Shown here: in pieces, positions 4,079 through 23,905 of the stretch | Position numbering within the stretch: the stretch's first letter is position 1 | How the letters are laid out: every line of letters starts with the position of its first letter | Source of the DNA: an uncultured bacterium | GTDB taxonomy: Bacteria > Margulisbacteria > WOR-1 > CAVSGV01 | Length of the DNA stretch: 32,000 nucleotides | Reading direction: 5' to 3' | Assembly (NCBI GenBank): GCA_963699255.1 | Contig: OY969425.1 | Span: 1,200,001-1,232,000 of the forward strand | The notes under the pieces: generated by a model | Databases searched by the model: none | Told to the model about the DNA's origin: nothing | Seen by the model: only the letters and a program-made list of their open reading frames with translations | Program-made: the position numbers and the translations under genes

Positions 4079-6142
4079 ATGCTTTTAACATTGTATTCAA
4101 TTTTAACATTTTCCGTAGCAATACTGAGCTTCATAATCGGCCTGTTTGTCGTTATAAACCGCAGGAACACTCTGAACATTCTATGGTTCATGCTTTGCAT
4201 AACCATAGCCGGCTGGAACCTCGGATATTTCTTTACCATGGTTCCAGGGATAAGTTATGAAAATGCGCTGCTGTCAAGCAGACTGTCACACGCAAGTGGC
4301 ATACTGATAGCGTCATTTTTCTTTACTTTTACCCTGGTCTTTCTCGGCTTGATAAAAGAGAAAATGCCTCAGCTTATATTAGCGCATATTATTACCGTAA
4401 TACTCGTGGGGTTGTGTCTTACTCCCTTTGTAGTTACAAGTCTTGTCCCAAAAATGTTCATGCCGCTTTATCCTGTCGGGAAAATCGGTTATGCTTTATA
4501 TATAACAAATTTCCTCGCCTGGGTTATTTACTCGCATTATTTGTATATCACAAGTTACAAAAGATTAAATGGCTCACAGCAGGCTCAGATAAAATATTTT
4601 TTGCTGGGCACAGTGATCGGCTTTTTTGGCGGTTGCAACTGCTTCCCGCTTATTTTCAATATTCCCATCTCCCCGATAGCAAGTCTTTTGATCATTGTTT
4701 ATCCATTCACAACTGCCTACGCAATATTAAAACATCGCCTCATGGATATCGAATTTGTTATTAAGCGTAGCTTTGTTTATTCTGTTTTAACCGCTCTGAT
4801 CATCGGGATCTATACTCTTATAATATTTATCTCTCAGGAGTTTTTCGTAAATCTTATCGGCCTTAGATGGCTACTCATTCTCATCGGTTCGGCCCTGATC
4901 GCTATCGGCTTCAAACCTCTTGAGCTTGCATTTACCAATTTTACCGACAAATATTTTTTCAAGGCCAAATATGATTATCAAAAAACCTTAAAAGAGCTGA
5001 GCCGGGCCGCAAGATCTATCCTAGAAATAGATGAGCTCCTTAACAAAGTAACAATGTCTATTGTCGAAACTATCAAGGTAAAGAATGTATTAATCTATGT
5101 ACTTGATAAGAAAAACGGCCAGTTTTTACTGCATAAATCAGTAATTGCTCCTCAACAAAAGATACTGGAGAACAACGCAGGTATAGTTAAGAGCTTAATT
5201 GAAAAGAAAGAAGTCATAATAAACGACGGATCAATTAAGCTTTCCGAAGATGCCGCCGGTTTTATCAGAAAAACAGGCGTTGCTCTGATATTTCCGGTGC
5301 TTTTCAAAGATGAACTTGTCGGCATCTTTTGCCTTGGAGAAAAACTGTCCGGAGATATATACGGCAGTGAAGATATCGATCTTTTGACGACGTTATGCGA
5401 TCAGATAGGAATATCCATAAAGAACTCGATGCTTTCGGAAGAAGCGATAGAAACCCAAAAACAGCTTTACCAGGCGGATAAGCTGGCAACGATCGGCACG
5501 CTCGCGGCCGGTCTTGTCCATGAGATAAAGAACCCTTTGACCGCGATAAAAGGCTTTTCGCAGCTGATTGATAAGGCATTTGAGGAACAAGACAAAGATG
5601 CCATCAAAGATTATAAGGGAGTTATGTCCAGACAGCTTGACAGGATCAGCGAAATCGTGGAAAAGCTGCTCAATTTAAGCAAGCCGAGCAAACTTGAGAA
5701 ACAAAAGATAGATATTAACAGCGTTCTGGAAGACATTATCAAACTTATCGGCAAGCAGGCCTCAAGCCAGCACGTACAGATCGTTAAAGATCTTAATGCG
5801 ACATCAGAAATGATCGCTGATCCCGGACAGCTCACACAGGCGTTCCTTAATCTGATATTGAACGGGATCCAGGCAATGCCAAATGGGGGCACGCTTCAAA
5901 TAAAAACAAAAGAAGCAGGTCCTGAACGGATAACTGTAGAGATAATCGACAGCGGGACAGGTATTTCAAAGGATAAGCTGGAGAAGATATTCGATCCATT
6001 CTATACAACCAAAGAAAGCGGTGTTGGGCTTGGATTGGCCGTTACGAAGAAAATAATTGACGATCACAAAGGGAAAATTGAAGTCAAAAGCGAGGAAGGA
6101 AAAGGAACCACTTTCACGATCCTTCTCCCGATCAATCCCTAG
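4079..6142 (+). CDS. Sensor histidine kinase: N-terminal 7TM sensor, GAF domain, HisKA, HATPase_c
   Basis: 687 aa. About 7 predicted TM helices occupy the first ~290 aa. A GAF-like block is present (ALIFPVLFKDELVGIFCLGEKLSGDIYGSEDIDLL). The H-box is HEIKNPLTAIKG, the N-box is NLILNGIQAM, and G-boxes are DSGTGI and GVGLGLA. Confidence 0.9.
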   Translation: MLLTLYSILTFSVAILSFIIGLFVVINRRNTLNILWFMLCITIAGWNLGYFFTMVPGISYENALLSSRLSHASGILIASFFFTFTLVFLGLIKEKMPQLILAHIITVILVGLCLTPFVVTSLVPKMFMPLYPVGKIGYALYITNFLAWVIYSHYLYITSYKRLNGSQQAQIKYFLLGTVIGFFGGCNCFPLIFNIPISPIASLLIIVYPFTTAYAILKHRLMDIEFVIKRSFVYSVLTALIIGIYTLIIFISQEFFVNLIGLRWLLILIGSALIAIGFKPLELAFTNFTDKYFFKAKYDYQKTLKELSRAARSILEIDELLNKVTMSIVETIKVKNVLIYVLDKKNGQFLLHKSVIAPQQKILENNAGIVKSLIEKKEVIINDGSIKLSEDAAGFIRKTGVALIFPVLFKDELVGIFCLGEKLSGDIYGSEDIDLLTTLCDQIGISIKNSMLSEEAIETQKQLYQADKLATIGTLAAGLVHEIKNPLTAIKGFSQLIDKAFEEQDKDAIKDYKGVMSRQLDRISEIVEKLLNLSKPSKLEKQKIDINSVLEDIIKLIGKQASSQHVQIVKDLNATSEMIADPGQLTQAFLNLILNGIQAMPNGGTLQIKTKEAGPERITVEIIDSGTGISKDKLEKIFDPFYTTKESGVGLGLAVTKKIIDDHKGKIEVKSEEGKGTTFTILLPINP

Positions 6143-6187
6143 AGTGTTCTCCCTCCACCTCTCTCTTTATTACTTTATTCCCCTTAT

Positions 6188-6216
6188 TTGACACTCATTT
6201 TTGTGTGTGGGATAAT
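6188..6216 (+). promoter_or_regulatory. Near-consensus sigma70-type promoter TTGACA-N17-(TGG)GATAAT
   Basis: TTGACA is at 6188-6193 with a 17-nt spacer. TGG is at 6208-6210, followed by GATAAT at 6211-6216. The ATG at 6223 begins 7 nt after the -10 and has no Shine-Dalgarno sequence. Confidence 0.5.
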
Positions 6217-6222
6217 AAAATC

Positions 6223-7419
6223 ATGAGGTTAGCAATTACCGGCGCCACAGGACTTCTTGGCAGGAATTTGCTTTTTGAGATACTAAAGCAGAACATCAAT
6301 AATCTTGATAATCTAGAAATCCTCGTCTTCAGCAGGCCAAAAAATGAACTCTCACACGCTGAACGAATAGAAGAAATACTCCTGAACGACGGATTACAAT
6401 ATATCGGATGTTCCAAAGACAAACTTAGCGATCTGCTTAAATCGATCATACCGATCTATTTTGACCTTTCAAAAGACAATCTTGCTATTTCCAATGACGG
6501 CTTCTATTTGCTAAATAAGAATCCGATAGACTGTTTTTTCCATATAGCCGCTCTAACAGATTTCCGGCATGAAAAACAAGTTGAGGAACAACTGCAAAAA
6601 ATAAATGTGCTGGGAACAAAAAAAATCACTGAACTTATATCCCAGCTGCACGTAAAACAAGCCGCTTATGTCGGATCAGCCTATTCATGCGGCAAAGCCA
6701 CAGGAAAGGTAATGCCTGATTATATTAATCTCAATGAGGGATTCAGAAATCCATATGAAAAATCCAAGCTTGAGGCGGAAATCCTCTTCAGGAATTTTGC
6801 CAAAGATAAAAAACTTAAACACAAAATATTCCGGCCGGCCACGATATGCGGAAGATTGATCGAAAATCCGATCGGCAGTATAAATAAGTTTGATGTCTTT
6901 TACGGCTGGGCAGCTTTCTTTTTGCGTTACAAATTAAAACACATCAAATCAATAAGCAATCTTTACAGCGAATCTTTTAACATGCCTATAAGGTTAGCCA
7001 TAAACAAAAAGAGCGGATTGAATATCGTTCCAGCGGATTTCGCAGGAAAGATCATATATTCCGTATTTGCGCGCGATGAAAAAGACGTCAGCTATCATCT
7101 TGCAAATGACAAGGAGACTCCGCATTCTCTATATATCGATCAGATCCTCACCGGCCTCAACATTTCCGGGTACAGTTTCGTCGACAAAGAACCTTCGGAT
7201 CAATCTGTGATCGAGAAGTTCCATTATAAGACCGTCGGACAGATCTTTGCGCCATATACGCTCTCTAATTCGATCACTTTCGATGTAAGCAACTTAAAAC
7301 CATTGCAGCGGAAGATAGCACTGGAATGCCCTCCGGTAAACGAGGAAAATTTCTCAAAACTATTAAAATTCGCGATAAAACATAATTTTGGTTTACAAAT
7401 AAACACGGAGACAAAATGA
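6223..7419 (+). CDS. SDR-family NAD(P)-binding protein, thioester-reductase / fatty-acyl reductase-like (NAD_binding_4 type)
   Basis: MRLAITGATGLLGRNLL is a Rossmann GxxGxxG motif at the N-terminus. YEKSKLEAE is a YxxxK catalytic motif. The protein is about 400 aa. I prefer the ATG at 6223 over the track's GTG at 6205, because 6205 lies inside the promoter spacer. Confidence 0.7.
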   Translation: MRLAITGATGLLGRNLLFEILKQNINNLDNLEILVFSRPKNELSHAERIEEILLNDGLQYIGCSKDKLSDLLKSIIPIYFDLSKDNLAISNDGFYLLNKNPIDCFFHIAALTDFRHEKQVEEQLQKINVLGTKKITELISQLHVKQAAYVGSAYSCGKATGKVMPDYINLNEGFRNPYEKSKLEAEILFRNFAKDKKLKHKIFRPATICGRLIENPIGSINKFDVFYGWAAFFLRYKLKHIKSISNLYSESFNMPIRLAINKKSGLNIVPADFAGKIIYSVFARDEKDVSYHLANDKETPHSLYIDQILTGLNISGYSFVDKEPSDQSVIEKFHYKTVGQIFAPYTLSNSITFDVSNLKPLQRKIALECPPVNEENFSKLLKFAIKHNFGLQINTETK

Positions 7420-9533
7420 ACCCGTACGCACTCCCCCCTTTCATATCGTGTATTCTGGCAATAACAATTGGATGTTTCGTATTATCAAGAAATGTAAAAT
7501 CAAAAGACAATATTACTTTTAGCTTATTATGCTTTAGCACCGCACTTTGGCTTGCCGGTTACACGATCATGTATTTAAGTACGGATAGTATTCAAGCTTT
7601 AAGATGGGCACGGGTAGGTTTTTCCGGAATTATTTTTATCCCTATTTTTGCATATCACTTTGTAACCTCTTATATTAAAAAGCCGCCAAAAGCATGGGTC
7701 TTCCCGCTCCTATATGGTTTAGGATTATTTTCCGTTTATCTTGGCCAAACAAATTATGTATACTCAGGCATATCAAGATACTTTTGGGGATTTTATCCGG
7801 ATGCCGGCCCAATATATTTTATCTTTCCGGTAAGTTATGTCCTACTTTTTTCCTATGCCACATTCCTGCTCTTTCTGGCCTACCTTCAGGCATTAAAGGC
7901 TAAAGAATACAGGGTCATCCAACAATTGCGCTATGTTTTTATTGCTATTGGGGGCGCAATCCCAGCTGTTGTAGATTATATTATCAAATACAAGATTGAA
8001 ATATACCCGTTCGGATATATTTCTGCGCTGTTTTTCATTTTTGTTATGACATATGCCATTGTTAAAACTCGCCTCATGGACATCGAATTTGTCATTAAGA
8101 GAAGCTTTGTTTATTCGGTCCTAACCGCCCTGATCATCGGGATATATACTCTTATAATATTCGTGTCTCAGGAGTTTTTCGGTAATCTTATCGGCATAAG
8201 ATGGGTGCTCACATTGCTAGGTTCGGCGATGATAGCGATCGGATTTAAACCTCTCGAAACCGCTTTTACCAACTTTACCGATAAATATTTCTTCCAGGGA
8301 AAATATGACTACCACAAGGTGCTAAAAGACCTATCCCGGGGAATGGCCGAGCTCACAAGCCTGGAGAGGCTGACAAAATTGATAACAAGGATAGTAATGA
8401 AGAACGTCAAACTGTCAGGAGCCATGCTTTTCGTTTACGACTATAACGCTAACTTATTCCGCGCCGTGGCGGCGCAGGGCGACATGAAAGAGTTCAAGAA
8501 CGCCGAGCTCGTGAAAACAGACAACCTGGTCAGGTACATGGACGAAAAAGGGGATGTCCTGATAAAAGGGGAAGTCGCCCATGAGATGGATAACAATCAG
8601 GCCCTTGATACTCACAGGAAATTCCTAAAATCGATCCTGAACCAGATGAATAAGTTCAAGGCCGTCCTATGCGTGCCCAGCAAGATCGGAGATAAGCTGA
8701 TGGGCTTCATACTCCTTTCCGAGAAAAAATCCCAGGACGCATATTCCACCGAAGACCTTATGCTCTTCCAGACCCTGGCCCCGCAGGCCGCCATCGCTAT
8801 GAAGAACGCCATGACCTATGACGAGATCAGGAAGGACTTTGAAAAGGAACATGAGAAAGTTGAGAGCATAGAGAAGCAGCTGGAGCGCTCCGAACGGCTT
8901 GCCTCGCTCGGGACGGTGGCCGCCGGCGTGGCGCACGAGATCAGGAACCCGCTGGGGATGATCCAGATAAAGACCGATAAGCTCGCCGTCGACCAGATCA
9001 ATGAAGAAACGCTGAAGGAATTCAAAGCTTCTGTCACAAGCAATATAGAACGCTCAACGAACATCATCAGGAGCATGCTCGACCTCGCAAAATCAAAAGA
9101 AAAAAAATACGAGAAGGTGGACCTGAACGGGGTGATCGAATCCGCGCTTCAGTTCTTCCCTTTAACCGGGATCAAGCTGGTAAAGGAACTGGGCCCGATC
9201 TCGAACATTAACGGGGACGCGGAGGAATTAAAACAGGTACTCGTCAATTTGATAGACAATGCCGTGAAAGCCATGCCAACCGGCGGGAACCTGAAGGTCG
9301 TTTCACGGCAGGAAGAGAACAGGATCACCATAGATGTCACCGATACCGGAGTGGGGATCCCGAAAGAAGATTTTGAAAGGATATTCGATCCGTTCTTTTC
9401 CACAAGGCATGAAGGGACCGGGCTCGGTCTCTCTATCGCCTACAGGATAATAAGGGAACACGGCGGGAGCATCAAGGTTGAGAGCAAGGTCGGGGAAGGG
9501 TCTACTTTTCAGTTACAGTTTACAACAGCTTAG
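7416..9533 (+). CDS. Sensor histidine kinase paralog: 7TM sensor, GAF, HisKA, HATPase_c
   Basis: 705 aa with the same architecture as 4079-6142. The H-box is HEIRNPLGMIQ, the N-box is NLIDNAVKAM, and G-boxes are DTGVGI and GTGLGLS. The start overlaps the SDR stop (ATGA at 7416-7419), with a GGAG RBS 5 nt upstream. Confidence 0.9.
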   Translation: MNPYALPPFISCILAITIGCFVLSRNVKSKDNITFSLLCFSTALWLAGYTIMYLSTDSIQALRWARVGFSGIIFIPIFAYHFVTSYIKKPPKAWVFPLLYGLGLFSVYLGQTNYVYSGISRYFWGFYPDAGPIYFIFPVSYVLLFSYATFLLFLAYLQALKAKEYRVIQQLRYVFIAIGGAIPAVVDYIIKYKIEIYPFGYISALFFIFVMTYAIVKTRLMDIEFVIKRSFVYSVLTALIIGIYTLIIFVSQEFFGNLIGIRWVLTLLGSAMIAIGFKPLETAFTNFTDKYFFQGKYDYHKVLKDLSRGMAELTSLERLTKLITRIVMKNVKLSGAMLFVYDYNANLFRAVAAQGDMKEFKNAELVKTDNLVRYMDEKGDVLIKGEVAHEMDNNQALDTHRKFLKSILNQMNKFKAVLCVPSKIGDKLMGFILLSEKKSQDAYSTEDLMLFQTLAPQAAIAMKNAMTYDEIRKDFEKEHEKVESIEKQLERSERLASLGTVAAGVAHEIRNPLGMIQIKTDKLAVDQINEETLKEFKASVTSNIERSTNIIRSMLDLAKSKEKKYEKVDLNGVIESALQFFPLTGIKLVKELGPISNINGDAEELKQVLVNLIDNAVKAMPTGGNLKVVSRQEENRITIDVTDTGVGIPKEDFERIFDPFFSTRHEGTGLGLSIAYRIIREHGGSIKVESKVGEGSTFQLQFTTA

Positions 9534-11929: not shown

Positions 11930-13198
11930 ATGTGCTACACGATACCAGGAAAGGTCGTTGAAATTTCAGGTCATACCGCGATCATCGACTATTTCGGTGA
12001 AAAAAGGAAGGCCCTGAACGAGCTCGTGGACCTCAAGGTCGGCGATTACATCTACGCCCAGGGCGGATTCGTCATAAACACGCTCCCCGAAGCCGAAGCC
12101 TTGCAGGTGCTGGACGACTGGCGGGACATATTCTTCGCGCTCCAGAGGACGGACGTCCGCCTCTCGCGTCTCAAGCTTGACGACACAGGCGTGGACAGGT
12201 CTTTCGTCCGCATCCTTGATAAAGCGGCAGAGGCTAAGACGCTCGAAAGAGAAGAGCTGCTGGCGCTTATCCGGACAAAGAACAAAAAAGAGCTGAACCT
12301 TCTTTTCAAGGTCGCCAATTTCCTCCGGCAGAAATACCTTAAGAACGCGTGCTGCGTGCACGGGATAATCGAGTTCTCCAATTACTGCGTGAACGATTGC
12401 GAATACTGCGGGATAAGGAAAAGTGCCAAGATACCAAGATACCGGATGCCAGATATGGAAATACTTCAAGCTGTCGATGAAGCCGTTAACAAATACGGTT
12501 TCAAGGCCCTGGTGCTGCAGTCGGGTGAGGATCCCGAATTTTCAACTGACCGGCTGGCTGAAGTGATAAAAGAGATCAAAAAGAGATATGCCGTCCTTAT
12601 TTTCATATCGGTCGGGGAGATCGGCAAGCACGGCCTTCAAAAACTTTATGACGCGGGCGCCAGAGGGCTGCTTTTAAGGTTCGAGACCAGCAACCCCTGG
12701 CTATACTCGAAGCTGCACTGCGGCGACGAGCTTGAAGACAGGCTTAATGATATCAGAGATGCTTATGGGATAGGCTATCTGATACTGACGGGGGGATTGA
12801 TCGGTTTGCCCGGCCAGACCGAAGAAGATCTTTTGAACGATATCCTGCTCACGAAGGCGCTTCATGCGGAGATGTATTCATTCGGCCCTGTCCTTCCCAA
12901 TGGGCCGGAAACAGAGCTTGTGCTAAAGGTCCTTGCCGTGTCCAGGATCGTGGACCCCATGAACGCAAAGATCGTTGTTACCACCGGCTTTGAAACTCTC
13001 GAAAAGAACGCCAGGTCCCTGGGGCTTATGGCCGGCGCGAATTCGATGATGCTCAACGTGACGCCCATGAAATACAGGAAACTCTACAGCATCTATCCGA
13101 ACCGCGCCCACGAGGATGAGGAGATCGATGCTCAAATAAAGGAAGCTGTTGACCTGCTTTATTCTCTCGGAAGGGCACCTACAGATATAGGAATATAG
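11930..13198 (+). CDS. Fusion protein: N-terminal HypC/HupF-type [NiFe]-hydrogenase chaperone domain joined to a HydE-type radical SAM maturase domain
   Basis: The ORF is 422 aa and contains no internal stop. Residues 1 to ~72, MCYTIPGKVVEISGHTAIIDYFGEKRKALNELVDLKVGDYIYAQGGFVI, match the HypC hallmarks (Met-Cys N-terminus, GDY..hGGFai). The remainder matches HydE hallmarks: IIEFSNYCVNDCEYCGIRK (CX3CX2C), RYRM, LQSGEDP, LRFETSNP and GLPGQT. Confidence 0.8.
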   Translation: MCYTIPGKVVEISGHTAIIDYFGEKRKALNELVDLKVGDYIYAQGGFVINTLPEAEALQVLDDWRDIFFALQRTDVRLSRLKLDDTGVDRSFVRILDKAAEAKTLEREELLALIRTKNKKELNLLFKVANFLRQKYLKNACCVHGIIEFSNYCVNDCEYCGIRKSAKIPRYRMPDMEILQAVDEAVNKYGFKALVLQSGEDPEFSTDRLAEVIKEIKKRYAVLIFISVGEIGKHGLQKLYDAGARGLLLRFETSNPWLYSKLHCGDELEDRLNDIRDAYGIGYLILTGGLIGLPGQTEEDLLNDILLTKALHAEMYSFGPVLPNGPETELVLKVLAVSRIVDPMNAKIVVTTGFETLEKNARSLGLMAGANSMMLNVTPMKYRKLYSIYPNRAHEDEEIDAQIKEAVDLLYSLGRAPTDIGI

Positions 13199-13362: not shown

Positions 13363-13391
13363 TTGACGGCGAAGGCCATTCTTGATAAAAT
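13363..13391 (+). promoter_or_regulatory. Candidate operon promoter TTGACG-N17-(TGA)TAAAAT
   Basis: TTGACG is at 13363-13368 and TAAAAT at 13386-13391, preceded by TGA. The track's TTG start at 13382 lies inside this promoter. Confidence 0.45.
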
Positions 13392-13417
13392 CAGGTCAGT
13401 ATTCTCTCTCCAAATAT

Positions 13418-14497
13418 ATGAAACAATACTTTATCAGTACTGCTAATTTTCAGGAATTGGTAAAAAAATTACTTAATGAATCGCCCGTTATCGCCCCCGT
13501 TAAATCTTTTAATAACCGCAATTTTGAGGAGATAAACGCGAAAAACCTCGAATGCATCGATATTTCCGGCTTCAGGACAGTGGAACCGTTCAAATCATAT
13601 CTTTTTAAATTGATCGAGAAAACCTCCGGATATTTTGGCAGCGACGAACCAACGCACGGGAAAGCGCTGACGATCATCGGCGCGCGGGGATGCGACCTTG
13701 AAGCGCTTGAGGTGCTGGACAGGGTCTTCGGCGAGGGCGACTTCAAGGATCCTTTCTATATATCCAGCCGCGAAAAGGTCCTTGTGATCGGGGCCGATTG
13801 CACCGACTGCGGGAAGACCTGTTTTTGCACCATGGTCAACGGCAAGCCGTATCCGGTCAAACTATTTGATCTGAACCTGTCCTCTATCAATGACGGATAT
13901 GTGGCGGCGGTCGGGTCAGATAAGGGCGGAAAGTTAATAGAAGACAATCCATTATTGTTCCTGCCGGCCACATCGATCTCCCTTGATGAAAAAGGGAAAA
14001 ATAGGGAAAAAACTATCGATCTGCTTGAGGAGAACAATAAAAACTTCAAGCTCAAACTTGACCTATCACTGACACATAAAAAGAACATTGAGAACAAGAT
14101 ATGGAAGGTCCTGACAAAGGACTGCGTTGAGTGCAGCGCCTGCAATTTTATTTGCCCCACCTGCACGTGTTTTCTCCTGCTTGACCAGAAAAATCCCCGA
14201 CACTCTGGTCGGAGCAAGGACGAGGCTGAGTACGAAAGATATAAGGTATGGGATGCGTGCCTTAAGGCCGGATACCAGAAAGTCGCCGGCGGAAGCAATC
14301 CCAGGGGCAGGCTTTCCGAGCGGCTCCAGAACAGGTATCATTGCAAATTCGATTACTCTTTTGACAGGCTGAACCGCTACACCTGCGTCGGATGCGGAAG
14401 GTGCATAGACGGGTGCGCGGGGAACATAGATATGCGGAAGATATTCGTCGAACTTGAGAAACAGGCGCCTCTGACGGCAAAACTGGAAGCACTATGA
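13418..14497 (+). CDS. Fe-S protein of the AsrA / sulfhydrogenase beta-subunit family
   Basis: CVECSACNFICPTCTCF and CVGCGRCIDGC are cluster motifs. The upstream GADCTDCGKTCFC is typical of AsrA/HydB-beta type proteins. I prefer the ATG at 13418 (MKQYF...) over the TTG at 13382. No clear RBS is visible. Confidence 0.7.
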   Translation: MKQYFISTANFQELVKKLLNESPVIAPVKSFNNRNFEEINAKNLECIDISGFRTVEPFKSYLFKLIEKTSGYFGSDEPTHGKALTIIGARGCDLEALEVLDRVFGEGDFKDPFYISSREKVLVIGADCTDCGKTCFCTMVNGKPYPVKLFDLNLSSINDGYVAAVGSDKGGKLIEDNPLLFLPATSISLDEKGKNREKTIDLLEENNKNFKLKLDLSLTHKKNIENKIWKVLTKDCVECSACNFICPTCTCFLLLDQKNPRHSGRSKDEAEYERYKVWDACLKAGYQKVAGGSNPRGRLSERLQNRYHCKFDYSFDRLNRYTCVGCGRCIDGCAGNIDMRKIFVELEKQAPLTAKLEAL

Positions 14498-15309
14498 ACG
14501 AAAATCCATACAGACCGGTAAAATCCAAGATCGAGGCGGTCATTACCGAGACCCCGACGATAAAGACCTTTGTCCTGAGGCCCGAGGAAAAGTTGTCTTT
14601 TGAATCGGGGCAGTTCATGCAGGTGACGGTACCGGGGATGGGCGAGTGCCCGTTCACGCCTTCTTCCGATCCCAAAAAAACAGATACCATCGAATTTACG
14701 ATAATGAAAGCCGGGAGCGTCACAAAGAGGCTCCACGAAATGAAGGAAGGCGAATATCTGGGAATACGGGGCCCTTACGGAAAGCCCTACCCTATCAGGG
14801 CCTTTTACGGAAAAGAAGTTTATGTCGTGGGCGGCGGCGTGGGACTGGCCCCGCTCAGGGCCCTTCTATTCGCGCTGTCCCACGAACTTGACCACCTGAA
14901 CAAGATAGAGGTCAGGTTCGGCGCGCGGACCCCGAGCGACATTTCGTACAAGAAAGCAATAGACGATTGGAGAAAATGGAAGAACACGAACATAGTCATC
15001 ACGGTGGATGCTTCTGAGCCGGGCTGGACCGGCAACGTCGGCTTGGTCACGACGATCCTGAAAGATGGCGATGTAAAAGTAAATAATGCCGTTGCCATAC
15101 TCTGCGGACCGCCAATTATGATGAAGTTCGCGAACAAAAGACTTCTCGACATGGGGTTTGACCCGAAGGGCATCTATCTGTCAATGGAAAAGAACATGAG
15201 CTGCGGCATAGGAAAATGTTTTCACTGCAACCTTGGGAAGTATTTTTGCTGCAAGGACGGCCCCGTGTTCACATGGGACCAGATTAAGGACATACCCGAA
15301 CCATGGTAG
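14494..15309 (+). CDS. FAD/NAD(P)-binding [2Fe-2S] oxidoreductase of the AsrB / sulfhydrogenase gamma / PyrK-like family
   Basis: 271 aa. GQFMQV...PFTPSS forms the flavin-binding barrel and VVGGGVGLAPL the NAD(P) fold. The C-terminal MSCGIGKCFHCNLGKYFCCKDGPVF is a 2Fe-2S motif. The start overlaps the upstream stop (ATGA). Confidence 0.8.
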   Translation: MNENPYRPVKSKIEAVITETPTIKTFVLRPEEKLSFESGQFMQVTVPGMGECPFTPSSDPKKTDTIEFTIMKAGSVTKRLHEMKEGEYLGIRGPYGKPYPIRAFYGKEVYVVGGGVGLAPLRALLFALSHELDHLNKIEVRFGARTPSDISYKKAIDDWRKWKNTNIVITVDASEPGWTGNVGLVTTILKDGDVKVNNAVAILCGPPIMMKFANKRLLDMGFDPKGIYLSMEKNMSCGIGKCFHCNLGKYFCCKDGPVFTWDQIKDIPEPW

Positions 15310-16727
15310 ATAAAAGAAAGACCACATGCCTTTTTTGTTCGCTCGGCTGCGGAGTGGCGTTCAGGACCGCAGCCGGACAGATCACAGCCATTGATTATGA
15401 CAGGGATAACCCGATCAATCAGGGTTCTCTTTGCCCCCGGGGTTATTACAATCTTGAGCTCATCAACCATCCGCAAAGGCTGACCCAGCCGCAGATCGGT
15501 AAAAGGAAAGTTTCATGGGATGAGGCGATCTCCTCCGCAAAAAGAGAGATGAAAAAGTTCGATCCCTCGTCCATCGGGATAGCGTTGTCCTCCATGGCAA
15601 GTAATGAGGATGCTTACGCGGCTTGCCTCATGGCGAATTCGATGGGAATAAAGAAAGTTTCATCGGTCGGGGATCCCGCAGATATCGAAGCGTTCGAGGG
15701 GGACAGATGGAGCGTTGAAGGATCGTCCCTTGAGAACATCGAGGGGATCGGCGGCCGCGACGCACTTCTGATAATTGGCGATATTCTGACCCGTTCGCCT
15801 GTGCTTTCAAAGTGGATCAACAAGGTTAAATACGGAAAAAGAGGCAATCAGATCATAGTGATCGATCCCAACACATCCCACACTTCCTGGTTCGCGACAA
15901 CGCACTTGAAAAACAGGCCGGGAACTGATGCGATCCTGATGGCCGCGATCCTGAAGGTGATCGCGGAGGAGAACAAAAGAGGGAGCATCGACATTGACCT
16001 GCAGAACGTCGCTCAGACCGTCGGGATCCCCGCTGAAGCAATAATCAGGGCGGCAAAGTCTTTTGACGAGGCGGAGTCGGGAACGATAATATTCGCGCCG
16101 GGAAGGAACATCCAGAGGAACGATCTGGTCCAATATTTTGTCAAAGCGGCTTCGAGCTTTTCGATCAATAAAAAGCACATTACTTTCTACAGCTTCGGCA
16201 ATGCTTTCGGCGTCAACACGATAATTGATTCGATGGTGGAAGGTCGGGAAAAGGGCATCAGCGGCGCAAAAGCCTTGATCTCTCTGGGTGAAAATGCCTT
16301 TGTTCCTGGAGTCAAGTTCACCGTATTATCAACTTACTTTGCGCCTGATGCGCTCGATGAAAGCACGGTCGTTCTTCCATTAGCCAGTCACATGGAGAGG
16401 AAGGGCAATGTGACCATGGCAGGGGGAAGGAACGTGAATTTCAAGCCGATAGTCCATAAGGTTGGCGGCAGGTCAAATGTGAAGATCATAAATTCCCTCG
16501 CTGATATAAAAATGGATTTTGACGAGATCCTGGCTCAGACAAGCCGGGTCCTCGCCCTAGGCATGAAAGTGGAGAAAGTCGACCTGAAACAGAAGATATC
16601 CGAGGCGCGGGATATCGCAGCAAGGCCTTCCGCCGCGGCAGAGAACATAACGCATTTCGGCAACAACGAGCTTGTTAAGAGGTTCTTCTGGTACAGGGTC
16701 AATAACAAAACCGGGGAGATGACATGA
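15303..16727 (+). CDS. Short molybdopterin-oxidoreductase (MopB)-like protein with an N-terminal [4Fe-4S] motif, no recognisable active-site Cys/Sec and no C-terminal MGD-binding barrel
   Basis: 474 aa. The sequence CLFCSLGCGV...LCPRG gives the CX2CX3C...C pattern. NEDAYAACLMANSMGIKKVSSVGDPAD stands where FdhH-type enzymes carry the ...R(I/L)(C/U)H segment. Only five Cys are present in total, and there is no in-frame TGA. Confidence 0.7.
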   Translation: MVDKRKTTCLFCSLGCGVAFRTAAGQITAIDYDRDNPINQGSLCPRGYYNLELINHPQRLTQPQIGKRKVSWDEAISSAKREMKKFDPSSIGIALSSMASNEDAYAACLMANSMGIKKVSSVGDPADIEAFEGDRWSVEGSSLENIEGIGGRDALLIIGDILTRSPVLSKWINKVKYGKRGNQIIVIDPNTSHTSWFATTHLKNRPGTDAILMAAILKVIAEENKRGSIDIDLQNVAQTVGIPAEAIIRAAKSFDEAESGTIIFAPGRNIQRNDLVQYFVKAASSFSINKKHITFYSFGNAFGVNTIIDSMVEGREKGISGAKALISLGENAFVPGVKFTVLSTYFAPDALDESTVVLPLASHMERKGNVTMAGGRNVNFKPIVHKVGGRSNVKIINSLADIKMDFDEILAQTSRVLALGMKVEKVDLKQKISEARDIAARPSAAAENITHFGNNELVKRFFWYRVNNKTGEMT

Positions 16728-17260
16728 CACAACAGCCGGATGTGAGGATCGATTCCGCGGTGCCGCGAGAAAAGTTCAACGGCAAAAGGGTCTATTTGAA
16801 CCTAGACCTTTGCTGCGGCTGCAGAAGCTGCGCCGCGGCCTGCGCGTACGGGCACCACATTCAGTCCCTTTTGGGCCACGGCAAGCTCGAGACTGAAGCA
16901 GAACTTCCTCTGCACTGCCTGCACTGCGATCAGCCGGCCTGCGCCGCTGCATGCCCTAATGAAGCAATGAAGAAAATGGACGATGGGATCGTCCTGAGAA
17001 GCCATTTTAAATGCGTCGGCTGCGGCTCATGCGCCGTAGCCTGCCCCTTCGGAGTGATCCATCCGGACCTCACAAAGCATATGGTCCCTAAATGCGATCT
17101 CTGCATCGATCGCCTGGCCGAAAGCGAGATACCCAGATGCGTGCAGAGCTGCACATCCGGAGCCCTTACTTTTGAGGAGATAGATGAGCAGGTAGTGGAT
17201 GAGAAAAAGAACCTGGCTTCTGTAAGGATACTTTCCAATTTTATCGGAAGGAGGAGATGA
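16724..17260 (+). CDS. HycB / DmsB-type multi-[4Fe-4S] ferredoxin subunit
   Basis: 178 aa with four Cys groups: CCGCRSCAAAC, CLHCDQPACAAACP, CVGCGSCAVACP and CDLC...CVQSC. Confidence 0.85.
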   Translation: MTQQPDVRIDSAVPREKFNGKRVYLNLDLCCGCRSCAAACAYGHHIQSLLGHGKLETEAELPLHCLHCDQPACAAACPNEAMKKMDDGIVLRSHFKCVGCGSCAVACPFGVIHPDLTKHMVPKCDLCIDRLAESEIPRCVQSCTSGALTFEEIDEQVVDEKKNLASVRILSNFIGRRR

Positions 17261-17940
17261 TGATGGCAAAACCTGAAGAACACATGGATAAAGCGTGCGT
17301 CTGTCTTCGGGAAGGCAAGTTCCGCGACGCGATAAAAGAATATCAGGAGGCGCTCCGGATAGACCCGAACAATGCGATAGCCCACAGATCTTTGGGGAGC
17401 TTATATTACCGTCAAACTATGCTCGATGAATCGATCGCCGAATTCAACAAGGCTATCCAGTTGAATCCGAACTATTCTGACGCTCATTACGAACTGGGGG
17501 TCTCGCTTTACAGGAGAGGAAGACTTGAGGAAGCGGTCAGATCGTTCGATGAGGCGCTGAGGATCAATCCTAATTTTCTGATCGCGAGATACTGGTTGGG
17601 TCTCTCATATTATTATATCGGAAAGCTTAATGAGGCAATAAAGGAATTCGATGCGGTAATAGACAAAGGGCCGAAGATAGAGATAGCCCATTACCACCTC
17701 GGCTCGGCTCTGGAGCAGGAAGGGAAGTTCGATGAAGCTATCCGGCAGTTCGAGGAGTTCGTAAAGGAGGTCCCGGAAAGCGCGGCGGCATACTATCACC
17801 TGGGGGTGAATTACTACAATAAGGGCGACGTCGAAAAGGCGATCGTAAATTTTAAAAAAGCGGTCGAGATCGATCCTTCGGATGAGCGGGCGAGAAAAAA
17901 TCTTTCAATGCTGGAGGACCTAAGGAGCCAGTTTTTTTAG
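17257..17940 (+). CDS. TPR-repeat protein (about 6 repeats) embedded in the hydrogenase operon
   Basis: 227 aa. TPR signatures recur, for example AIKEYQEALRIDPNNAIAH, AIAEFNKAIQLNPNYSDAHY and AVRSFDEALRINPNF. The ATG overlaps the upstream TGA, and the stop abuts the next ATG. Confidence 0.85.
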   Translation: MMMAKPEEHMDKACVCLREGKFRDAIKEYQEALRIDPNNAIAHRSLGSLYYRQTMLDESIAEFNKAIQLNPNYSDAHYELGVSLYRRGRLEEAVRSFDEALRINPNFLIARYWLGLSYYYIGKLNEAIKEFDAVIDKGPKIEIAHYHLGSALEQEGKFDEAIRQFEEFVKEVPESAAAYYHLGVNYYNKGDVEKAIVNFKKAVEIDPSDERARKNLSMLEDLRSQFF

Positions 17941-18870
17941 ATGATTGAATTCCTTTATTACATTTTGGTAATGCCGGGTTTTCTCTTCACGGCTTTCACA
18001 GGTCTGCTATCTACCTGGGTTGACCGCAAAGTGACCGCCAGATTGCAGTGGAGGCAGGGCCCTCCTATATTTCAACCGTTCGCGGATATCCTCAAACTGC
18101 TCGGTAAGGAAATAATGATCCCTGAAGGAGCCTCAAAGCTGGTCTTCCTGTCCGCGCCCCTCATCGGAATTGCGGCTGTAACGCTGGTTTCAACTATGTT
18201 ATGGATATTGAATATAAATATATATGGAAGTTTTGTCGGAGACCTTATCGTTATATATTACATGCTGATGATCCCATCGCTTGCCCTGATCATCGGCGGG
18301 TCGGCTTCAAGGAATCCGTTCTCGGCGATCGGAGCAAGCCGTGAAATGAAGCTTATCCTTGCTTATGAACTCCCTTTCATTATCGCGATAGCAACCGTCA
18401 TCGCGAGAACAGGTTCGATAATCATGGGAGATATTATCGGCTATCAATCCATGCACGGAATGATGATCGGGAGCTTCTCGGGCATCATCGCCTTTTTTGT
18501 GTCCCTGCTTGTGGTACAGGCAAAGCTGGGGTTCGTGCCTTTTGATGCATCGGAAGCCGAACAGGAAATAATGGCCGGCACTCTCCTCGAATACAGCGGC
18601 GCGCCGCTCGCGGCCTTCAAACTGACAAAGGCGATGCTTCTGTTCACTCTGCCGGTGCTGCTTATAACCCTGTTCCTTGGCGGGATCGATACCTATTCGC
18701 TTGCGGGCGCTCTCTGGTTCGTCTTAAAGTATTTCGTGATCCTGACGCTGATCATACTCATCAAGAACACCAATCCGAGGATCAGGATAGATCAGGCGGT
18801 CCGCTTTTTCTGGGGCCCGGTGACCGTTCTGGCCGTTATCGGATTCGTTCTCGCTATGATAGGAAGGTAA
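17941..18870 (+). CDS. Membrane subunit of group 4 [NiFe]-hydrogenase, NuoH / HycD / MbhM-like
   Basis: 309 aa and polytopic. The N-terminal WVDRKVTARLQWRQGPPIFQPFADILKLLGKE is the NuoH-family signature. Confidence 0.9.
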   Translation: MIEFLYYILVMPGFLFTAFTGLLSTWVDRKVTARLQWRQGPPIFQPFADILKLLGKEIMIPEGASKLVFLSAPLIGIAAVTLVSTMLWILNINIYGSFVGDLIVIYYMLMIPSLALIIGGSASRNPFSAIGASREMKLILAYELPFIIAIATVIARTGSIIMGDIIGYQSMHGMMIGSFSGIIAFFVSLLVVQAKLGFVPFDASEAEQEIMAGTLLEYSGAPLAAFKLTKAMLLFTLPVLLITLFLGGIDTYSLAGALWFVLKYFVILTLIILIKNTNPRIRIDQAVRFFWGPVTVLAVIGFVLAMIGR

Positions 18871-18871
18871 A

Positions 18872-19288
18872 ATGGCGGATCTTTATAAATGGGGATTGAA
18901 AAAATCTCCCTGGGTTTTTCACCTGGGCGCTTCGGCGTGCAATAACTGCGACATAGAGATTCTGGACACGCTCACGCCGAGATTCGACGTGGAGAGGTTC
19001 GGGATAACGCTCGTCGGCTCCCCCAGGCACGCGGATATCCTGGTCGTTTCCGGTATAGTGAACCGCCAATCCATTGAACGGTTCAGGAAGGTCTATGATT
19101 CCGTGCCGAAGCCGAAGGCCGTTGTCGCCATCGGGGTCTGTGCTTGCACCGCGGACATGTTCCGCGACAGCTATAATTTCGTTAAGCCCGTGGATGAGAT
19201 AATACCGGTGGATGTTTACGTGCCCGGATGCCCGCCCAAGCCGGAGGCGATAATATCGGGTATAATAAAGGCTCTGGAGAAAATATAG
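18872..19288 (+). CDS. [NiFe]-hydrogenase small subunit, NuoB / HycG / MbhJ-like
   Basis: 138 aa. Cluster ligands are SACNNCDIEIL, GVCACTADMF and PGCPPKPEA. An AGGAAGG RBS lies upstream. Confidence 0.9.
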   Translation: MADLYKWGLKKSPWVFHLGASACNNCDIEILDTLTPRFDVERFGITLVGSPRHADILVVSGIVNRQSIERFRKVYDSVPKPKAVVAIGVCACTADMFRDSYNFVKPVDEIIPVDVYVPGCPPKPEAIISGIIKALEKI

Positions 19289-19740
19289 TGAACGTATCAG
19301 AAAATATCAAGAACAAGTTCAAAGACAAAGTCGAGATCTTTGTGAAATCAAAGAAAAGGACATATGTCAATGTTGCTAGAGATGACGCCAAGGACATCGT
19401 CCGCTACATATTCAGCAACATGGGTGCAAGGTTCTCGATAGCCACGGCGATCGATACCCGTCTTGGAGTAGAGATCATTTACCATATGGCTTTTGATAAG
19501 GACGACATGATCGTTTCGGTAAAGACCCTGGTAGCCAAACCGGAGCTTGAGATGCCCACTTTCACGGACATCATTCCGGCAACCGAGTGGATCGAGAGAG
19601 AGATACACGAAATGTTCGGAGTTGTTTTCATCGGCCATCCGAGGCTCGAGAGACTCTTGCTTCCCGACGACTGGGAAGAAGGCGTATATCCCTTCCGGAA
19701 GAAAACGTTCGAATCCGAAAAGGAGAATCCAGAAAAATAA
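19288..19740 (+). CDS. NuoC / MbhK-like hydrogenase subunit
   Basis: I prefer the GTG at 19288, which overlaps the upstream TAG by 1 nt and has GGAGA 7 nt upstream. The motif ATEWIEREIHEMFGVVFIGHP is NuoC-type. The track start at 19228 lies inside the small-subunit gene. Confidence 0.8.
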   Translation: MNVSENIKNKFKDKVEIFVKSKKRTYVNVARDDAKDIVRYIFSNMGARFSIATAIDTRLGVEIIYHMAFDKDDMIVSVKTLVAKPELEMPTFTDIIPATEWIEREIHEMFGVVFIGHPRLERLLLPDDWEEGVYPFRKKTFESEKENPEK

Positions 19741-19742
19741 CC

Positions 19743-20918
19743 ATGGCAAAAGAAAATCTTATACCGATAGGGCCTTTTCATCCGCTTCTTGAGGAGCCGG
19801 AATACTTCAAGTTCTATGTGGAAGGGGAAAAAGTGGTCGACGCGGACGTGAGGATCGGCTACAACCACAGAGGGATCGAAAAGCTTGCCGAGTCAAAGAC
19901 TTACGAACAGGATGTCTTCCTTGTTGAGAGGATATGCGGGATATGCTCGACCTCCCATCCTTTTGCCTTTGTACAGGCGGCCGAGGACGTCTCCGGCATC
20001 GAAGTACCGGAAAGGGCGCAGTATATCAGGACGATAATAGGAGAGCTTGAGAGGATCCACAGCCACCTGCTCTGGGTAGGCCTGGCTGCACATTTCATCG
20101 GCTACAACACGGTTTTCATGTGGGCATGGAAATACCGCGAACCGGTGCTTGATATATTTGAAGTTGTTTCAGGCAATCGCAACCATTACGGCATGTTCAA
20201 GGTTGGAGGTGTGAGAAGGGACATATTTGAGAAGGACATTCCGGGACTGCTGAAAGCCGTTGATGACGTCGAGAAATTCTGTTCGATGCTCGTTAAAGCA
20301 GTGATGGATGATCCGGTCATCCGGGCCAGGACGAAGGGTATCGGCATTTTGAAAAAGAAGGACGCCGCCGATCTTTGCGTGGTCGGGCCGGTCGCCCGTG
20401 CATCAGGGATCGAGATCGACATCAGAAAAGACCATCCATATGCGGCTTACGACAAGGTCTGTTTTGACAAGGTCGTCATGAAGGATGGGGATGTGTTCTC
20501 CAAGACAGCTGTAAGGCTACTTGAAACCCTCCAATCGGTGAACATAATCAGGCAGTGCTTAAAAAGCATGCCGCAGGGGCCTATTGATGCGGATATAAGA
20601 GAGATAGGCACAGGCGAAGGAATAGGACAGCATGAAGCGCCGCGAGGCGAAGTGATACACTATATCAGGTCCAATGGCTCCAATTATCCCGAGAGGCATA
20701 AGATACGCGCGCCTTCTTTCATGAACGTTCCCTCGTTCAAGAAAACCGTTATCGGCGAGTCGATCGCGGACGCGGCGCTGATAACCGCCGCGGTCGATCC
20801 CTGCTACTGCTGCACGGAGAGGATGGTCGTCGTCGACCGTGAAACGAACAGGACGCTTAAGACCGGTGAAGAGCTTGTCAGGCTCTGCCAGGAAAAAACG
20901 GAGAAAATGATGAAATGA
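19743..20918 (+). CDS. Group 4 [NiFe]-hydrogenase large (catalytic) subunit, NuoD / HycE C-terminal / MbhL-like
   Basis: The likely start is the ATG at 19743 (MAKENLIPIGPFHP). The N-terminal Ni-Fe ligand motif RICGICSTSH and the C-terminal DPCYCCTER motif are both intact. About 30 residues follow the C-terminal motif, which looks like a protease-cleavable extension. The track's 19587 start lies inside the upstream gene. Confidence 0.9.
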   Translation: MAKENLIPIGPFHPLLEEPEYFKFYVEGEKVVDADVRIGYNHRGIEKLAESKTYEQDVFLVERICGICSTSHPFAFVQAAEDVSGIEVPERAQYIRTIIGELERIHSHLLWVGLAAHFIGYNTVFMWAWKYREPVLDIFEVVSGNRNHYGMFKVGGVRRDIFEKDIPGLLKAVDDVEKFCSMLVKAVMDDPVIRARTKGIGILKKKDAADLCVVGPVARASGIEIDIRKDHPYAAYDKVCFDKVVMKDGDVFSKTAVRLLETLQSVNIIRQCLKSMPQGPIDADIREIGTGEGIGQHEAPRGEVIHYIRSNGSNYPERHKIRAPSFMNVPSFKKTVIGESIADAALITAAVDPCYCCTERMVVVDRETNRTLKTGEELVRLCQEKTEKMMK

Positions 20919-22693: not shown

Positions 22694-22700
22694 GAGTGAC

Positions 22701-23213
22701 ATGATAGAATTATACCTTTTGATGGTTTTTATAATAATTGCGGCGATGATCGCCGTTGAAAACCACACCTTGCTTTCGTCAATAATTTCACTTGGAGCCG
22801 TGGGGTTAGGGCTGTGCATAATATTCTTGATCCTCGGCGCTCCCGAACTTGCGATAACGCAGCTCGTTGTCGAGATACTCGTTCTTATTGTGCTTATACG
22901 CGCCACCATTGCCGTGTCGGTCCCGGAAACCTACAAGGGAAGGGAATTCCTGTCATACATGATGGCGATAGGTTTCATACTCCTGTTCATGGCCGGCTCG
23001 TTCTTCGCGTTCGGCAATCTTCCGGAATTCGGTGCTCCCATAATGAAATCCGCGAAAATATACATTGAAAATAGCGCCGGAGCTGCCGCGGAAAATCTTG
23101 TGACGACAGTTGCATTGAAATTCAGGAGGTTCGACTCTATTGGAATGGTGGCGATCATCTTTACTTCTGTCATAGGAACACTGGTCATCTTAAGGCAAAA
23201 AGGAAGGAAATAA
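22701..23213 (+). CDS. MrpA C-terminal-like subunit (MbhD/DUF4040-type segment plus MnhB-type segment)
   Basis: 170 aa. The N-terminal hydrophobic segment contains APELAITQLVVEILV. The segment NLVTTVALKFRRFDSIGMVAIIFTSVIG resembles the MnhB-domain motif. An AGGAG RBS lies upstream. Confidence 0.65.
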   Translation: MIELYLLMVFIIIAAMIAVENHTLLSSIISLGAVGLGLCIIFLILGAPELAITQLVVEILVLIVLIRATIAVSVPETYKGREFLSYMMAIGFILLFMAGSFFAFGNLPEFGAPIMKSAKIYIENSAGAAAENLVTTVALKFRRFDSIGMVAIIFTSVIGTLVILRQKGRK

Positions 23214-23217
23214 TTCA

Positions 23218-23607
23218 ATGAGCGGTATGGGTTTGATAGTGAAAACGGTCACAAGGGTTACTGTAGGTGTCATATTTCTTTTCGGATGCTACATCTCCGC
23301 GCAAGGTCATACCACCCTTGGCGGCGGACTTGCAGGAGGGGTCGTTATAGCTCTTGCTTTCATATTATATGTTCTTGCCTACGGCAGGACCCATGCGGAA
23401 GAAAGGCTCGGCAGGCAGCTTGCTTTGATTTTTATGGAACTTGGAGCTATCTTTTTTCTGCTGCTCTCGTTCTTCGGCTGCAAGCCGGAAGGATGTTATG
23501 AATGCATATTATGCAATCTTGCGATATCGGTGATGTCCGGCGCCGGACTTTTTGTCGTTTTCTTGAACTTTACCGCATTCAAGGCAAAGATAAGGGAGGA
23601 AAAATAA
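23218..23607 (+). CDS. MrpB / MnhB-like antiporter subunit
   Basis: 129 aa. GHTTLGGGLAGGVVIAL resembles the GHxxPGGGFxGG motif of MrpB. Confidence 0.65.
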   Translation: MSGMGLIVKTVTRVTVGVIFLFGCYISAQGHTTLGGGLAGGVVIALAFILYVLAYGRTHAEERLGRQLALIFMELGAIFFLLLSFFGCKPEGCYECILCNLAISVMSGAGLFVVFLNFTAFKAKIREEK

Positions 23608-23903: not shown

Positions 23904-23905
23904 GC

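Follow-up and report, generated by a model that had tools for sequence, protein, structure and literature searches.

A HypC–HydE fusion protein conserved among uncultivated anaerobes and linked to [NiFe] hydrogenase operons suggests a possible HydG-dependent route to the [NiFe] cofactor

Introduction

In the maturation of [NiFe] hydrogenases, Cys2 of the chaperone HypC carries an Fe(CN)2CO fragment to the large subunit, and in the [FeFe] system HydG makes [Fe(Cys)(CO)2(CN)] from tyrosine and HydE processes that synthon. The placing of consecutive maturation steps on one polypeptide has a precedent in algal HydEF, a fusion of [FeFe] maturases. Here we describe a gene in which a HypC module is fused to a HydE-type radical S-adenosylmethionine (SAM) enzyme. 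It lies on a stretch of 32,000 nucleotides from an uncultured bacterium (GTDB lineage Margulisbacteria; WOR-1; CAVSGV01), namely positions 1,200,001 to 1,232,000 of the forward strand of contig OY969425.1 (assembly GCA_963699255.1), hereafter referred to as the window. Unless another locus is named, coordinates are those of the window.

According to reviews, all [NiFe] hydrogenases need six Hyp proteins, and the origin of CO under anaerobic conditions is regarded as the most pressing open question (PMC12134894). A first-pass annotation of the window, made from the letters alone, had stated that it knew of no described HypC–HydE architecture. Full-text literature searches found no analysis of such an architecture, and to that extent the statement held; a 2026 preprint does, however, mention once, without analysis, a HydE–HypC fusion, which it terms unusual, in Candidatus Centrionella anaeramoebae (bioRxiv 10.64898/2026.04.11.717937). 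There, the fusion is located in a [NiFe] hydrogenase operon together with a protease, HypA, and HypB, and only HybD, HypA, HypB, and the fusion are listed as [NiFe] maturation genes of the closed 1.52-Mb symbiont genome; the authors term that set the full maturation machinery, and neither HypD, HypE, and HypF nor HydG is ever mentioned (bioRxiv 10.64898/2026.04.11.717937).

Results

Domain architecture of the fusion protein

As shown in Table 1, the fusion gene was verified to be a single uninterrupted reading frame, and all the motifs cited by the first-pass annotation were found in its product, including MCYTIP (residues 1–6), IIEFSN (residues 146–151), CVNDCEYC (residues 153–160; nucleotides 12386–12409), LQSGEDP, LRFETSNP, and GLPGQT. 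The N-terminal portion matched Pfam HupF_HypC over residues 1–62 (E = 5.8e-14; 52.4 bits against a cutoff of 28.5) and NCBIfam hypC_hupF (TIGR00074; 49.4 bits, cutoff 48), and residues 1–71 matched crystallised HypC in the PDB (2z1c; E = 1.3e-12). With both profiles above their cutoffs and a Met-Cys start, this portion was thus shown to be a full HypC domain, as had been claimed.

The remainder of the protein matched Pfam Radical_SAM (residues 147–303; E = 1.1e-14), and its best NCBIfam radical SAM family was HydE (TIGR03956; E = 4.9e-66). Over residues 96–417, end to end, the PDB matches were Thermotoga maritima HydE (TmHydE; E = 1.7e-57), PylB (6e-23), and BioB (2e-10). A structural model of the whole fusion, built with AlphaFold2 (AF2) from an alignment of 31 sequences, came out as one confident chain with a predicted local distance difference test score (pLDDT) of 92.1 and a predicted template modelling score (pTM) of 0.91. 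When its body was compared by Foldseek with TmHydE (3iiz), a root-mean-square deviation (rmsd) of 1.6 Å, a template modelling (TM) score of 0.90, and 37% identity were obtained, and the fit to PylB and BioB was clearly poorer (rmsd 3.5–3.7 Å). Based on scores, fold, and the pocket residues described below, an identity as BioB or PylB was rejected. The HydE assignment proposed at first pass was therefore borne out as by far the best family, but its 223.3 bits fell short of the trusted cutoff of 254.6; other fusions lie above that cutoff (P0137, 263.4 bits; P0140, 283.2 bits; L073, 322 bits).

In the linker region of the model, a helix (residues 54–78) is followed by a loop and a second helix (residues 90–100), and a linker consensus FFxLxxTDxRLSR was kept across the fusions. 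The pTM of the predicted chain gives a hint of a fixed arrangement of the HypC and HydE domains.

Conserved residues of the two modules

Cys2 and Pro6, the defining residues of the start Met-Cys-x-x-x-Pro, were present in 134 of 134 full-length homologues. His51 of Escherichia coli HypC, by comparison, is conserved, required for activity, and a possible Fe ligand on the HypC–HypD complex (PMC12134894); its equivalent in the window protein is Gln44 (YAQGGF, nucleotides 12053–12070), and the 134 homologues carry Gln (128), Thr (3), Ala (2), or Tyr (1) at this position, and never His. As read from the alignment, the loss of His51 would fit a HypC that has given up its pairing with HypD.

In the HydE module, the residues to be compared were taken from the pocket roles reported for HydE (PMC11826987). 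E58, the CX3CX2C motif, V105, Q107, L157, R159, E161, M224, M291, and Y306 (T. maritima numbering) were invariant in all 29 diverse fusions aligned, and K309 was represented by Arg in 18, Lys in 10, and Pro in 1. The window equivalents are found in HAEMYSF (M224; 12863–12883), GANSMML (M291; 13034–13054), and YPNRAH, with Arg for K309 (13094–13111). The dispensable cysteines of the C-terminal auxiliary cluster of HydE were not present in the fusions.

Distribution and phylogeny

More than 120 clusters at 90% identity, drawn from NCBI, JGI, ENA, and Logan assemblies, carried both Pfam domains (408–444 residues; 64–100% identical to the query), and among the top 150 representatives clustered at 50% identity, 24 were fused. 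When one genome per GTDB species was scanned, 489 relatives were retrieved, the best 80 of which were all full-length fusions. The database search for a shared architecture thus showed that the fusion is kept in independent assemblies and in several phyla, and a hidden stop or frameshift was excluded because the continuous architecture recurs across these clusters and species-level genomes. The observation of a HypC–HydE fusion was thereby confirmed. The bins holding the best 80 fusions were labelled Margulisiibacteriota/Saganbacteria/WOR-1, Omnitrophota (many), Brevinematales/Spirochaetota, Planctomycetes, Atribacterota, Elusimicrobia, and others, labels of metagenome-assembled genomes that may in some cases be wrong. 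Full-length fusions (L086 and L044; 56–58% identity) were also seen in bins labelled Aenigmatarchaeota (a 610-kb contig) and Falkowbacteria, where either misbinning, mislabelling, or lateral transfer would account for them.

Neighbour joining placed the fused HydE bodies in essentially one clade, with 32 fusion tips inside the clade of 38 defined by their most recent common ancestor. The six other tips comprised three truncated fragments, one mis-started protein, and two genuine stand-alone HydEs. One of the latter is encoded directly after a [NiFe] large subunit without a C-terminal extension and the other divergently from small and large subunit genes, and both precede HydG. Three lineages were found to encode HypC, HydE, and HydG on a single chain (P0123, 906 residues; P0133, 881 residues; L073, 921 residues), in each case inside or beside a [NiFe] operon; P0133 is just 38% identical, and L073 is located on a closed Omnitrophota chromosome. 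In these triple fusions HypC stays at the free N-terminus, and the domain order is the reverse of the HydG to HydE to HypC flow proposed below. A further protein, P0149 (803 residues), joins HydE to HydG without HypC, and in the tree its HydE portion falls among the canonical HydEs.

The [NiFe] large subunits beside the HypC-less HydE–HydG pairs (L093:1–150 and L094:1872–3158) stop right after DPCMSCAAH, and neither a cleavable C-terminal extension nor HycI was seen there; this may represent a variant needing neither the protease nor the HypC module. Other HydEs carry different N-terminal domains of about 90–110 residues (P0171, P0173, P0199, P0201; P0150, P0227, P0246), and those tested, P0173, P0150, and P0227, passed the HydE cutoff. 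One of these domain types, with a conserved Cys, presumably resembles small Se/S-carrier-like domains, which suggests that carrier modules were joined to HydE on more than one occasion.

Gene neighbourhoods of the fusion

To describe the company of the fusion without prior labels, open reading frames (ORFs) were called in 80 species-level loci and clustered, and the top clusters were annotated. These corresponded to the [NiFe] large subunit (58 of the 80 loci), the HycI protease (53), a Fer4_22 beta subunit (49), an FAD/NAD gamma subunit (49), the small subunit (43), and a Rex-like regulator (32), and the group-4 subunit clusters (NuoB-, NuoC-, NuoH-, and NuoI-like) occurred in 9–12 loci each. 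A seeded tblastn survey of 87 non-redundant loci, each covering ±10 kb around a fusion and together 1.46 Mb, found the large subunit in 64, HycI in 60, HydG in 47, HypA in at least 20, and HypB in 2. The fusion was the next same-strand gene after HycI in 54 of those 60 loci, and HydG stood immediately downstream of the fusion in 21 of its 47. Stand-alone HypC, HypD, HypE, and HypF were each found in none of the 87 loci, and HypD motifs were not found there either.

In a published baseline, obtained mostly from cultured organisms, the genes within five positions on either side of 951 [NiFe] large-subunit genes from 1,969 RefSeq genera included HypE (953), HycI (758), HypC (748), HypD (615), and HypF (600) (PMC12727194). 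Neither radical SAM HydE nor HydG is reported near [NiFe] genes in that neighbourhood analysis. Genome papers on Margulisbacteria and Omnitrophota do not discuss hydrogenase maturation, and no hyp entries of the KEGG orthology were found in the supplements of Matheus Carnevali 2019.

The locus of Candidatus Mcinerneyibacterium (L054) reads, in order, group-4 hydrogenase, HycI, HypA, HypB, HypA, and the fusion, followed by unrelated genes; the fusion therefore sits in the slot of hypC, and the hypD/hypE slot is empty. The genes after the fusion (L054:11572–14495) encode a GNAT, an alanine-racemase-like pyridoxal phosphate protein, and an Fe–S L-serine dehydratase. Ammonia-lyases have lately been linked to [FeFe] maturation (PMC11736057), and the neighbouring dehydratase may be a coincidence.

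Relation to the [FeFe] system

HydA was found near the fusion in 8 of the 87 loci and HydF in 1. The eight loci (L037, L038, L047, L051, L058, L066, L076, and L085) share a recurrent hydrogen island, with a true group-A6 [FeFe] hydrogenase and its NuoF-/NuoE-like subunits between the fusion and HydG. Its order is a [NiFe]-3b operon, HycI, the fusion, a Rex-like repressor, a Cache histidine kinase, NuoF-like, group-A6 HydA, NuoE-like, one or more response regulators, and HydG, with a canonical HydE next in L085. The island thus places both hydrogenase classes and both HydE types under one regulatory cassette.

A separate canonical HydE was found in two loci, L084 and L085, both of which also hold [FeFe] genes. 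L084 carries HydF–HydG–HydE; in L085 the canonical HydE, in which the auxiliary-cluster cysteines are visible, follows HydG directly after the [FeFe] HydA operon, and the fusion follows the [NiFe]–HycI genes. Both stand-alone proteins group with canonical HydEs in the tree. Since canonical HydE accompanies [FeFe] genes and the fusion [NiFe] genes, the two HydE paralogues partition between the hydrogenase classes, and they apparently share one HydG. Bins labelled Saganbacteria encode [NiFe]-3b, HycI, the fusion, and HydG. Saganbacteria have been reported to lack [FeFe] hydrogenases, which Riflemargulisbacteria possess (PMC6349859).

Gene content of the window

The features of the window are summarized in Table 1. 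Downstream of the fusion are encoded an electron-input module, a group-4 membrane hydrogenase, HypA, and HydG. The hydrogenase comprises NuoH-like, small, NuoC-like, and large subunits, Mrp antiporter-like subunits, and a NuoI-like ferredoxin; the large subunit, named at first pass as a candidate partner of the fusion, proved to be a real [NiFe] catalytic subunit with both L1 and L2 motifs, and a 31-residue extension follows L2. The truncated molybdopterin-like protein was seen again in 7 related loci (cluster 27), and no C-terminal domain of it was matched in Pfam. HypB, HypD, HypE, HypF, HycI, HydF, and HydA were not found in the window with Pfam and NCBIfam profiles. An ORF of 311 residues directly after HydG (28934–29869), considered as a hidden HydF or HydA, had no Pfam or NCBIfam match.

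Table 1. Coordinates of features in the window
Feature	Position	Strand	Basis or remark
HypC–HydE fusion gene	11930–13198	+	single ATG-to-stop ORF, 422 aa, 0 internal stops
HypC/HupF module	11930–12145	+	aa 1–72; Cys2 codon 11933–11935; PF01455, 52.4 bits
Helical interdomain linker	12146–12214	+	aa 73–95; AF2 secondary structure
HydE-type radical SAM module	12215–13198	+	aa ~96–422; TIGR03956, 223.3 bits
AsrA/ShyB-like Fer4_22 protein	13382–14497	+	Pfam/NCBIfam; electron-input module
AsrB/ShyC-like FAD/NAD protein	14494–15309	+	Pfam/NCBIfam; electron-input module
Truncated molybdopterin/NuoG-like protein	15303–16727	+	474 aa; Fdh-alpha only 125 bits
CooF-like 4Fe-4S protein	16724–17260	+	Pfam/NCBIfam; electron-input module
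All-TPR protein	17257–17940		227 aa; between CooF-like gene and group-4 hydrogenase
Group-4 (Mbh/Mrp-type) membrane [NiFe] hydrogenase	17941–27050	+	Pfam
[NiFe] small subunit	18872–19288	+	Pfam
[NiFe] large subunit	19743–20918	+	L1 RICGICSTSH 19929–19958; L2 DPCYCCTER 20796–20822
NuoI-like ferredoxin	26451–27050	+	Pfam
HypA nickel metallochaperone	27052–27387	+	PF01155, 88.3 bits
HydG, tyrosine lyase	27387–28886	+	499 aa; TIGR03955, 444.7 bits, cutoff 312

The HydG of the window matched TiHydG (4wcx) over its full length (E = 7e-134), and ThiH was rejected for this gene (235 bits, cutoff 380, against 444.7 for HydG); nine other partner HydGs that were tested scored 489–557 bits with TIGR03955. 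Its auxiliary-cluster motif CX2CX22C (28611–28709; residues 409–441) reads SFCTAGYRCSRTGKC...WFCKVNA, in which the second Cys is replaced by Gly and extra Cys residues stand 3 and 9 residues downstream, as in L004. Judged from the motif, the cluster holding the dangler Fe may have had its ligand re-wired. The odd CTAG motif was rejected as a mark of [NiFe]-linked HydG: it is confined to the lineage of the window and L004, and the canonical motif (CTACYR...C.PNA) is present in L005, L010, P0123, P0133, and P0149.

Next to the 311-residue ORF that follows HydG, a DAO-family FAD oxidase (29945–31018) scored as ThiO-like with 103 bits, well below cutoff. Elsewhere in the window, an NAD-dependent fatty-acyl-reductase-like gene is flanked by a pair of paralogous 7TM-GAF histidine kinases of 687 and 705 residues (4079–9533). 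Just 5′ of the fusion, on the opposite strand, are genes for a response regulator and for a LiaF-like membrane protein.

Discussion

These analyses established what the two modules are, that their residues and the fusion itself are conserved, and that the gene is linked in operons with [NiFe] genes, HydG, HypA, and HycI; together, these findings suggest that many uncultivated anaerobes may build the [NiFe] cofactor by an undescribed route. The idea put forward at first pass, that an [FeFe]-type radical SAM step hands over to a [NiFe]-type chaperone, is strongly backed by the gene context, the triple fusions, and the lack of HypD, HypE, and HypF nearby, and from these we infer the following sequence of events. 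HydG, by its established chemistry, would cleave tyrosine and build an organometallic Fe–CO/CN–cysteine synthon, which the HydE module would take into its conserved pocket, where SAM radical chemistry would strip off the cysteine scaffold, so that a mononuclear Fe carbonyl-cyanide species would remain bound to the protein. The N-terminal HypC module would require its Cys2 to be free at the start of the chain; it would then capture the Fe fragment and hand it to the adjoining [NiFe] hydrogenase's apo large subunit. Nickel would be inserted by HypA, with HypB where present, and HycI, where present, would cut the C-terminal extension off the large subunit. HydG and the HypC–HydE fusion would in this way stand in for HypC, for HypD as the scaffold, and for the cyanide pathway of HypE and HypF. 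Read from the genes, a transfer from the HydG synthon through the HydE module and the fused HypC to the apo-[NiFe] large subunit, replacing HypC, HypD, HypE, and HypF, appears to us moderately probable, and the parts of it that we infer are which way the fragment travels, the ligand stoichiometry, and the independence from HypD, HypE, and HypF. The bolder proposal that a large set of uncultivated anaerobes make the Fe–CO/CN centre of [NiFe] hydrogenases wholly from tyrosine, by HydG and a HypC–HydE assembly line, with neither HypD, HypE, and HypF nor carbamoyl phosphate, is advanced tentatively, as somewhat doubtful; with the same reserve, it would concern Margulisiibacteriota/Saganbacteria, Omnitrophota, Brevinematales, some Legionellales symbionts, and others, and such a route, if real, would be a second and independent way of making the [NiFe] cofactor, would link [FeFe] and [NiFe] maturation in evolution as a bridge, and might yield a non-canonical ligand set, for example Fe(CO)2(CN).

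Several observations weigh against the proposed transfer. The product of HydG holds two CO and one CN, and the [NiFe] site needs one CO and two CN; owing to this mismatch, an extra ligand exchange must be assumed. Formation of the di-iron HydE product has been tied to M224 and M291; both are kept in the fusions, and from these residues the HydE module may still produce an [FeFe]-type dimer. The window fusion scores under the trusted HydE cutoff, and in the eight hydrogen islands a true [FeFe] hydrogenase stands between the fusion and HydG. In a Margulisbacteria/WOR-1 clade (L001, L019, L025, and similar loci; a curated complete genome is among its members), the fusion is flanked on one side by ribD or by genes shortly downstream of ribD and, on contigs that reach far enough, by the ATP synthase operon on the other, and no hydrogenase, HydG, or HypA was found within 10 kb of it; operon linkage to a hydrogenase is therefore not universal. 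The locus counts cover ±10 kb around each fusion, and hypA, hypC, hypD, hypE, and hypF are present in at least one Omnitrophota genome.

These last points bear most directly on a partial pathway, in which the fusion would act as a dedicated HypC-type chaperone whose HydE module, with HydG, gives part of the ligands, for example CO, and HypD, HypE, and HypF encoded elsewhere in the genome still provide the cyanides and the scaffold. We consider this proposal rather unlikely. It would account for the operon linkage to [NiFe] genes as well as the full replacement does, Hyp genes can sit far from structural genes, the Omnitrophota genome just mentioned carries a hyp set, and the anaerobic origin of CO in [NiFe] maturation is unsettled (PMC12134894). 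Yet the HypC module is without His51, the possible Fe ligand on the HypC–HypD complex; HypD, HypE, and HypF were absent from the 1.46 Mb of neighbourhoods, though normally they are top neighbours; the maturation gene list given by the authors of the closed symbiont genome contains none of the three; and a second cyanide pathway would be redundant because HydG makes CN– as well as CO. It is less probable still, and in our view improbable, that the protein is an ordinary [FeFe] HydE bearing an N-terminal OB-fold accessory, for example for docking of HydF or HydG, with its proximity to [NiFe] genes reflecting co-regulated islands of hydrogen metabolism. The fully conserved pocket, including the dimerisation methionines, the eight loci with a group-A6 enzyme between the fusion and HydG, the [FeFe] hydrogenases of Riflemargulisbacteria, and the unrelated N-terminal domains on other HydE proteins would all suit such a protein. 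The fusion, however, follows HycI where the [NiFe] operon ends in 54 of the 60 loci, with HydA nearby in just 8 and HydF in 1 of the 87; both loci with canonical stand-alone HydE hold [FeFe] genes; bins labelled Saganbacteria, the lineage reported without [FeFe] enzymes, carry the fusion and HydG in [NiFe] operons; and Met-Cys-x-x-x-Pro, the functional signature of HypC, is strictly kept at the extreme N-terminus.

It seems very improbable that the radical SAM half works as BioB, PylB, or a member of the ThiH family on another substrate and came to be joined to a HypC-like fold by chance. The shortfall of the HydE score and the label "biotin synthase" given to homologues by JGI point that way, but the scores for PylB (130.8 bits, cutoff 348) and BioB (83.6 bits, cutoff 225) are far lower, the fusions P0137, P0140, and L073 pass the HydE cutoff, the fold is closest to TmHydE with the HydE-specific pocket invariant, and a true HydG is the recurrent partner, fused in three lineages. 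An assembly or indel artefact joining two ordinary genes, hypC and hydE, was a caveat of the first-pass annotation, and we found no support for it; the same continuous architecture of 417–444 residues in more than 120 clusters, in the 24 fused representatives of the top 150, and in 80 species-level genomes, the conserved linker, and the single confident AF2 chain stand against it. It was rejected on the conservation of the architecture across independent assemblies, and is almost certainly wrong.

If the proposed transfer from HydG through the fusion to the [NiFe] large subunit is true, it would identify tyrosine as a concrete origin of the CO and CN of [NiFe] enzymes in many anaerobes and would show that two maturation systems long treated as unrelated can combine. 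The operon with HycI, HypA, the fusion, and HydG would then be a compact set of genes with which [NiFe] hydrogenases of groups 3b and 4 could be produced heterologously. Annotation would also be corrected: the present names, "biotin synthase," "radical SAM protein," "HypC," and "[FeFe] maturase HydE," mislead metabolic reconstructions, in that [FeFe] hydrogenase capacity or a "missing" [NiFe] maturation is concluded from them.

Comparison with known maturation systems

The N-terminal module of the fusion resembles HypC, HybG, and HupF in its OB-fold with a C-terminal helix, in its invariant Cys2/Pro6 start, and in its adjacency to the genes of the [NiFe] large subunit, HycI, and HypA, including the hypC slot occupied in L054. 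Unlike these proteins, which are small, stand alone, and work with HypD, it is tied to a radical SAM enzyme of about 350 residues, its His51 is replaced, mostly by Gln, and no HypD gene was found within the 87 loci. The C-terminal module shares with HydE (TIGR03956; 3iiz, 7o1o) the full-length fold, the CX3CX2C motif, all the pocket residues checked, and HydG as a partner. It differs from canonical HydE in forming a separate clade, in being without the C-terminal auxiliary-cluster cysteines, in often having Arg for K309, and in its linkage to [NiFe] operons rather than to HydF and HydA, and in some genomes it coexists with a canonical HydE.

With the HypC–HypD and HypE/HypF machinery, the proposed route would have in common an Fe–CO/CN fragment that is held on the Cys2 thiolate of HypC and passed to the apo large subunit. 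In that machinery, cyanide is derived from carbamoyl phosphate via HypF and HypE on the [4Fe-4S] protein HypD, whereas in the route proposed for the fusion both CO and CN would come from tyrosine via radical SAM enzymes. The Centrionella fusion has the same HypC and HydE architecture as that of the window. Algal HydEF, finally, joins two proteins of the [FeFe] pathway, whereas HypC–HydE joins modules of two hydrogenase maturation systems.

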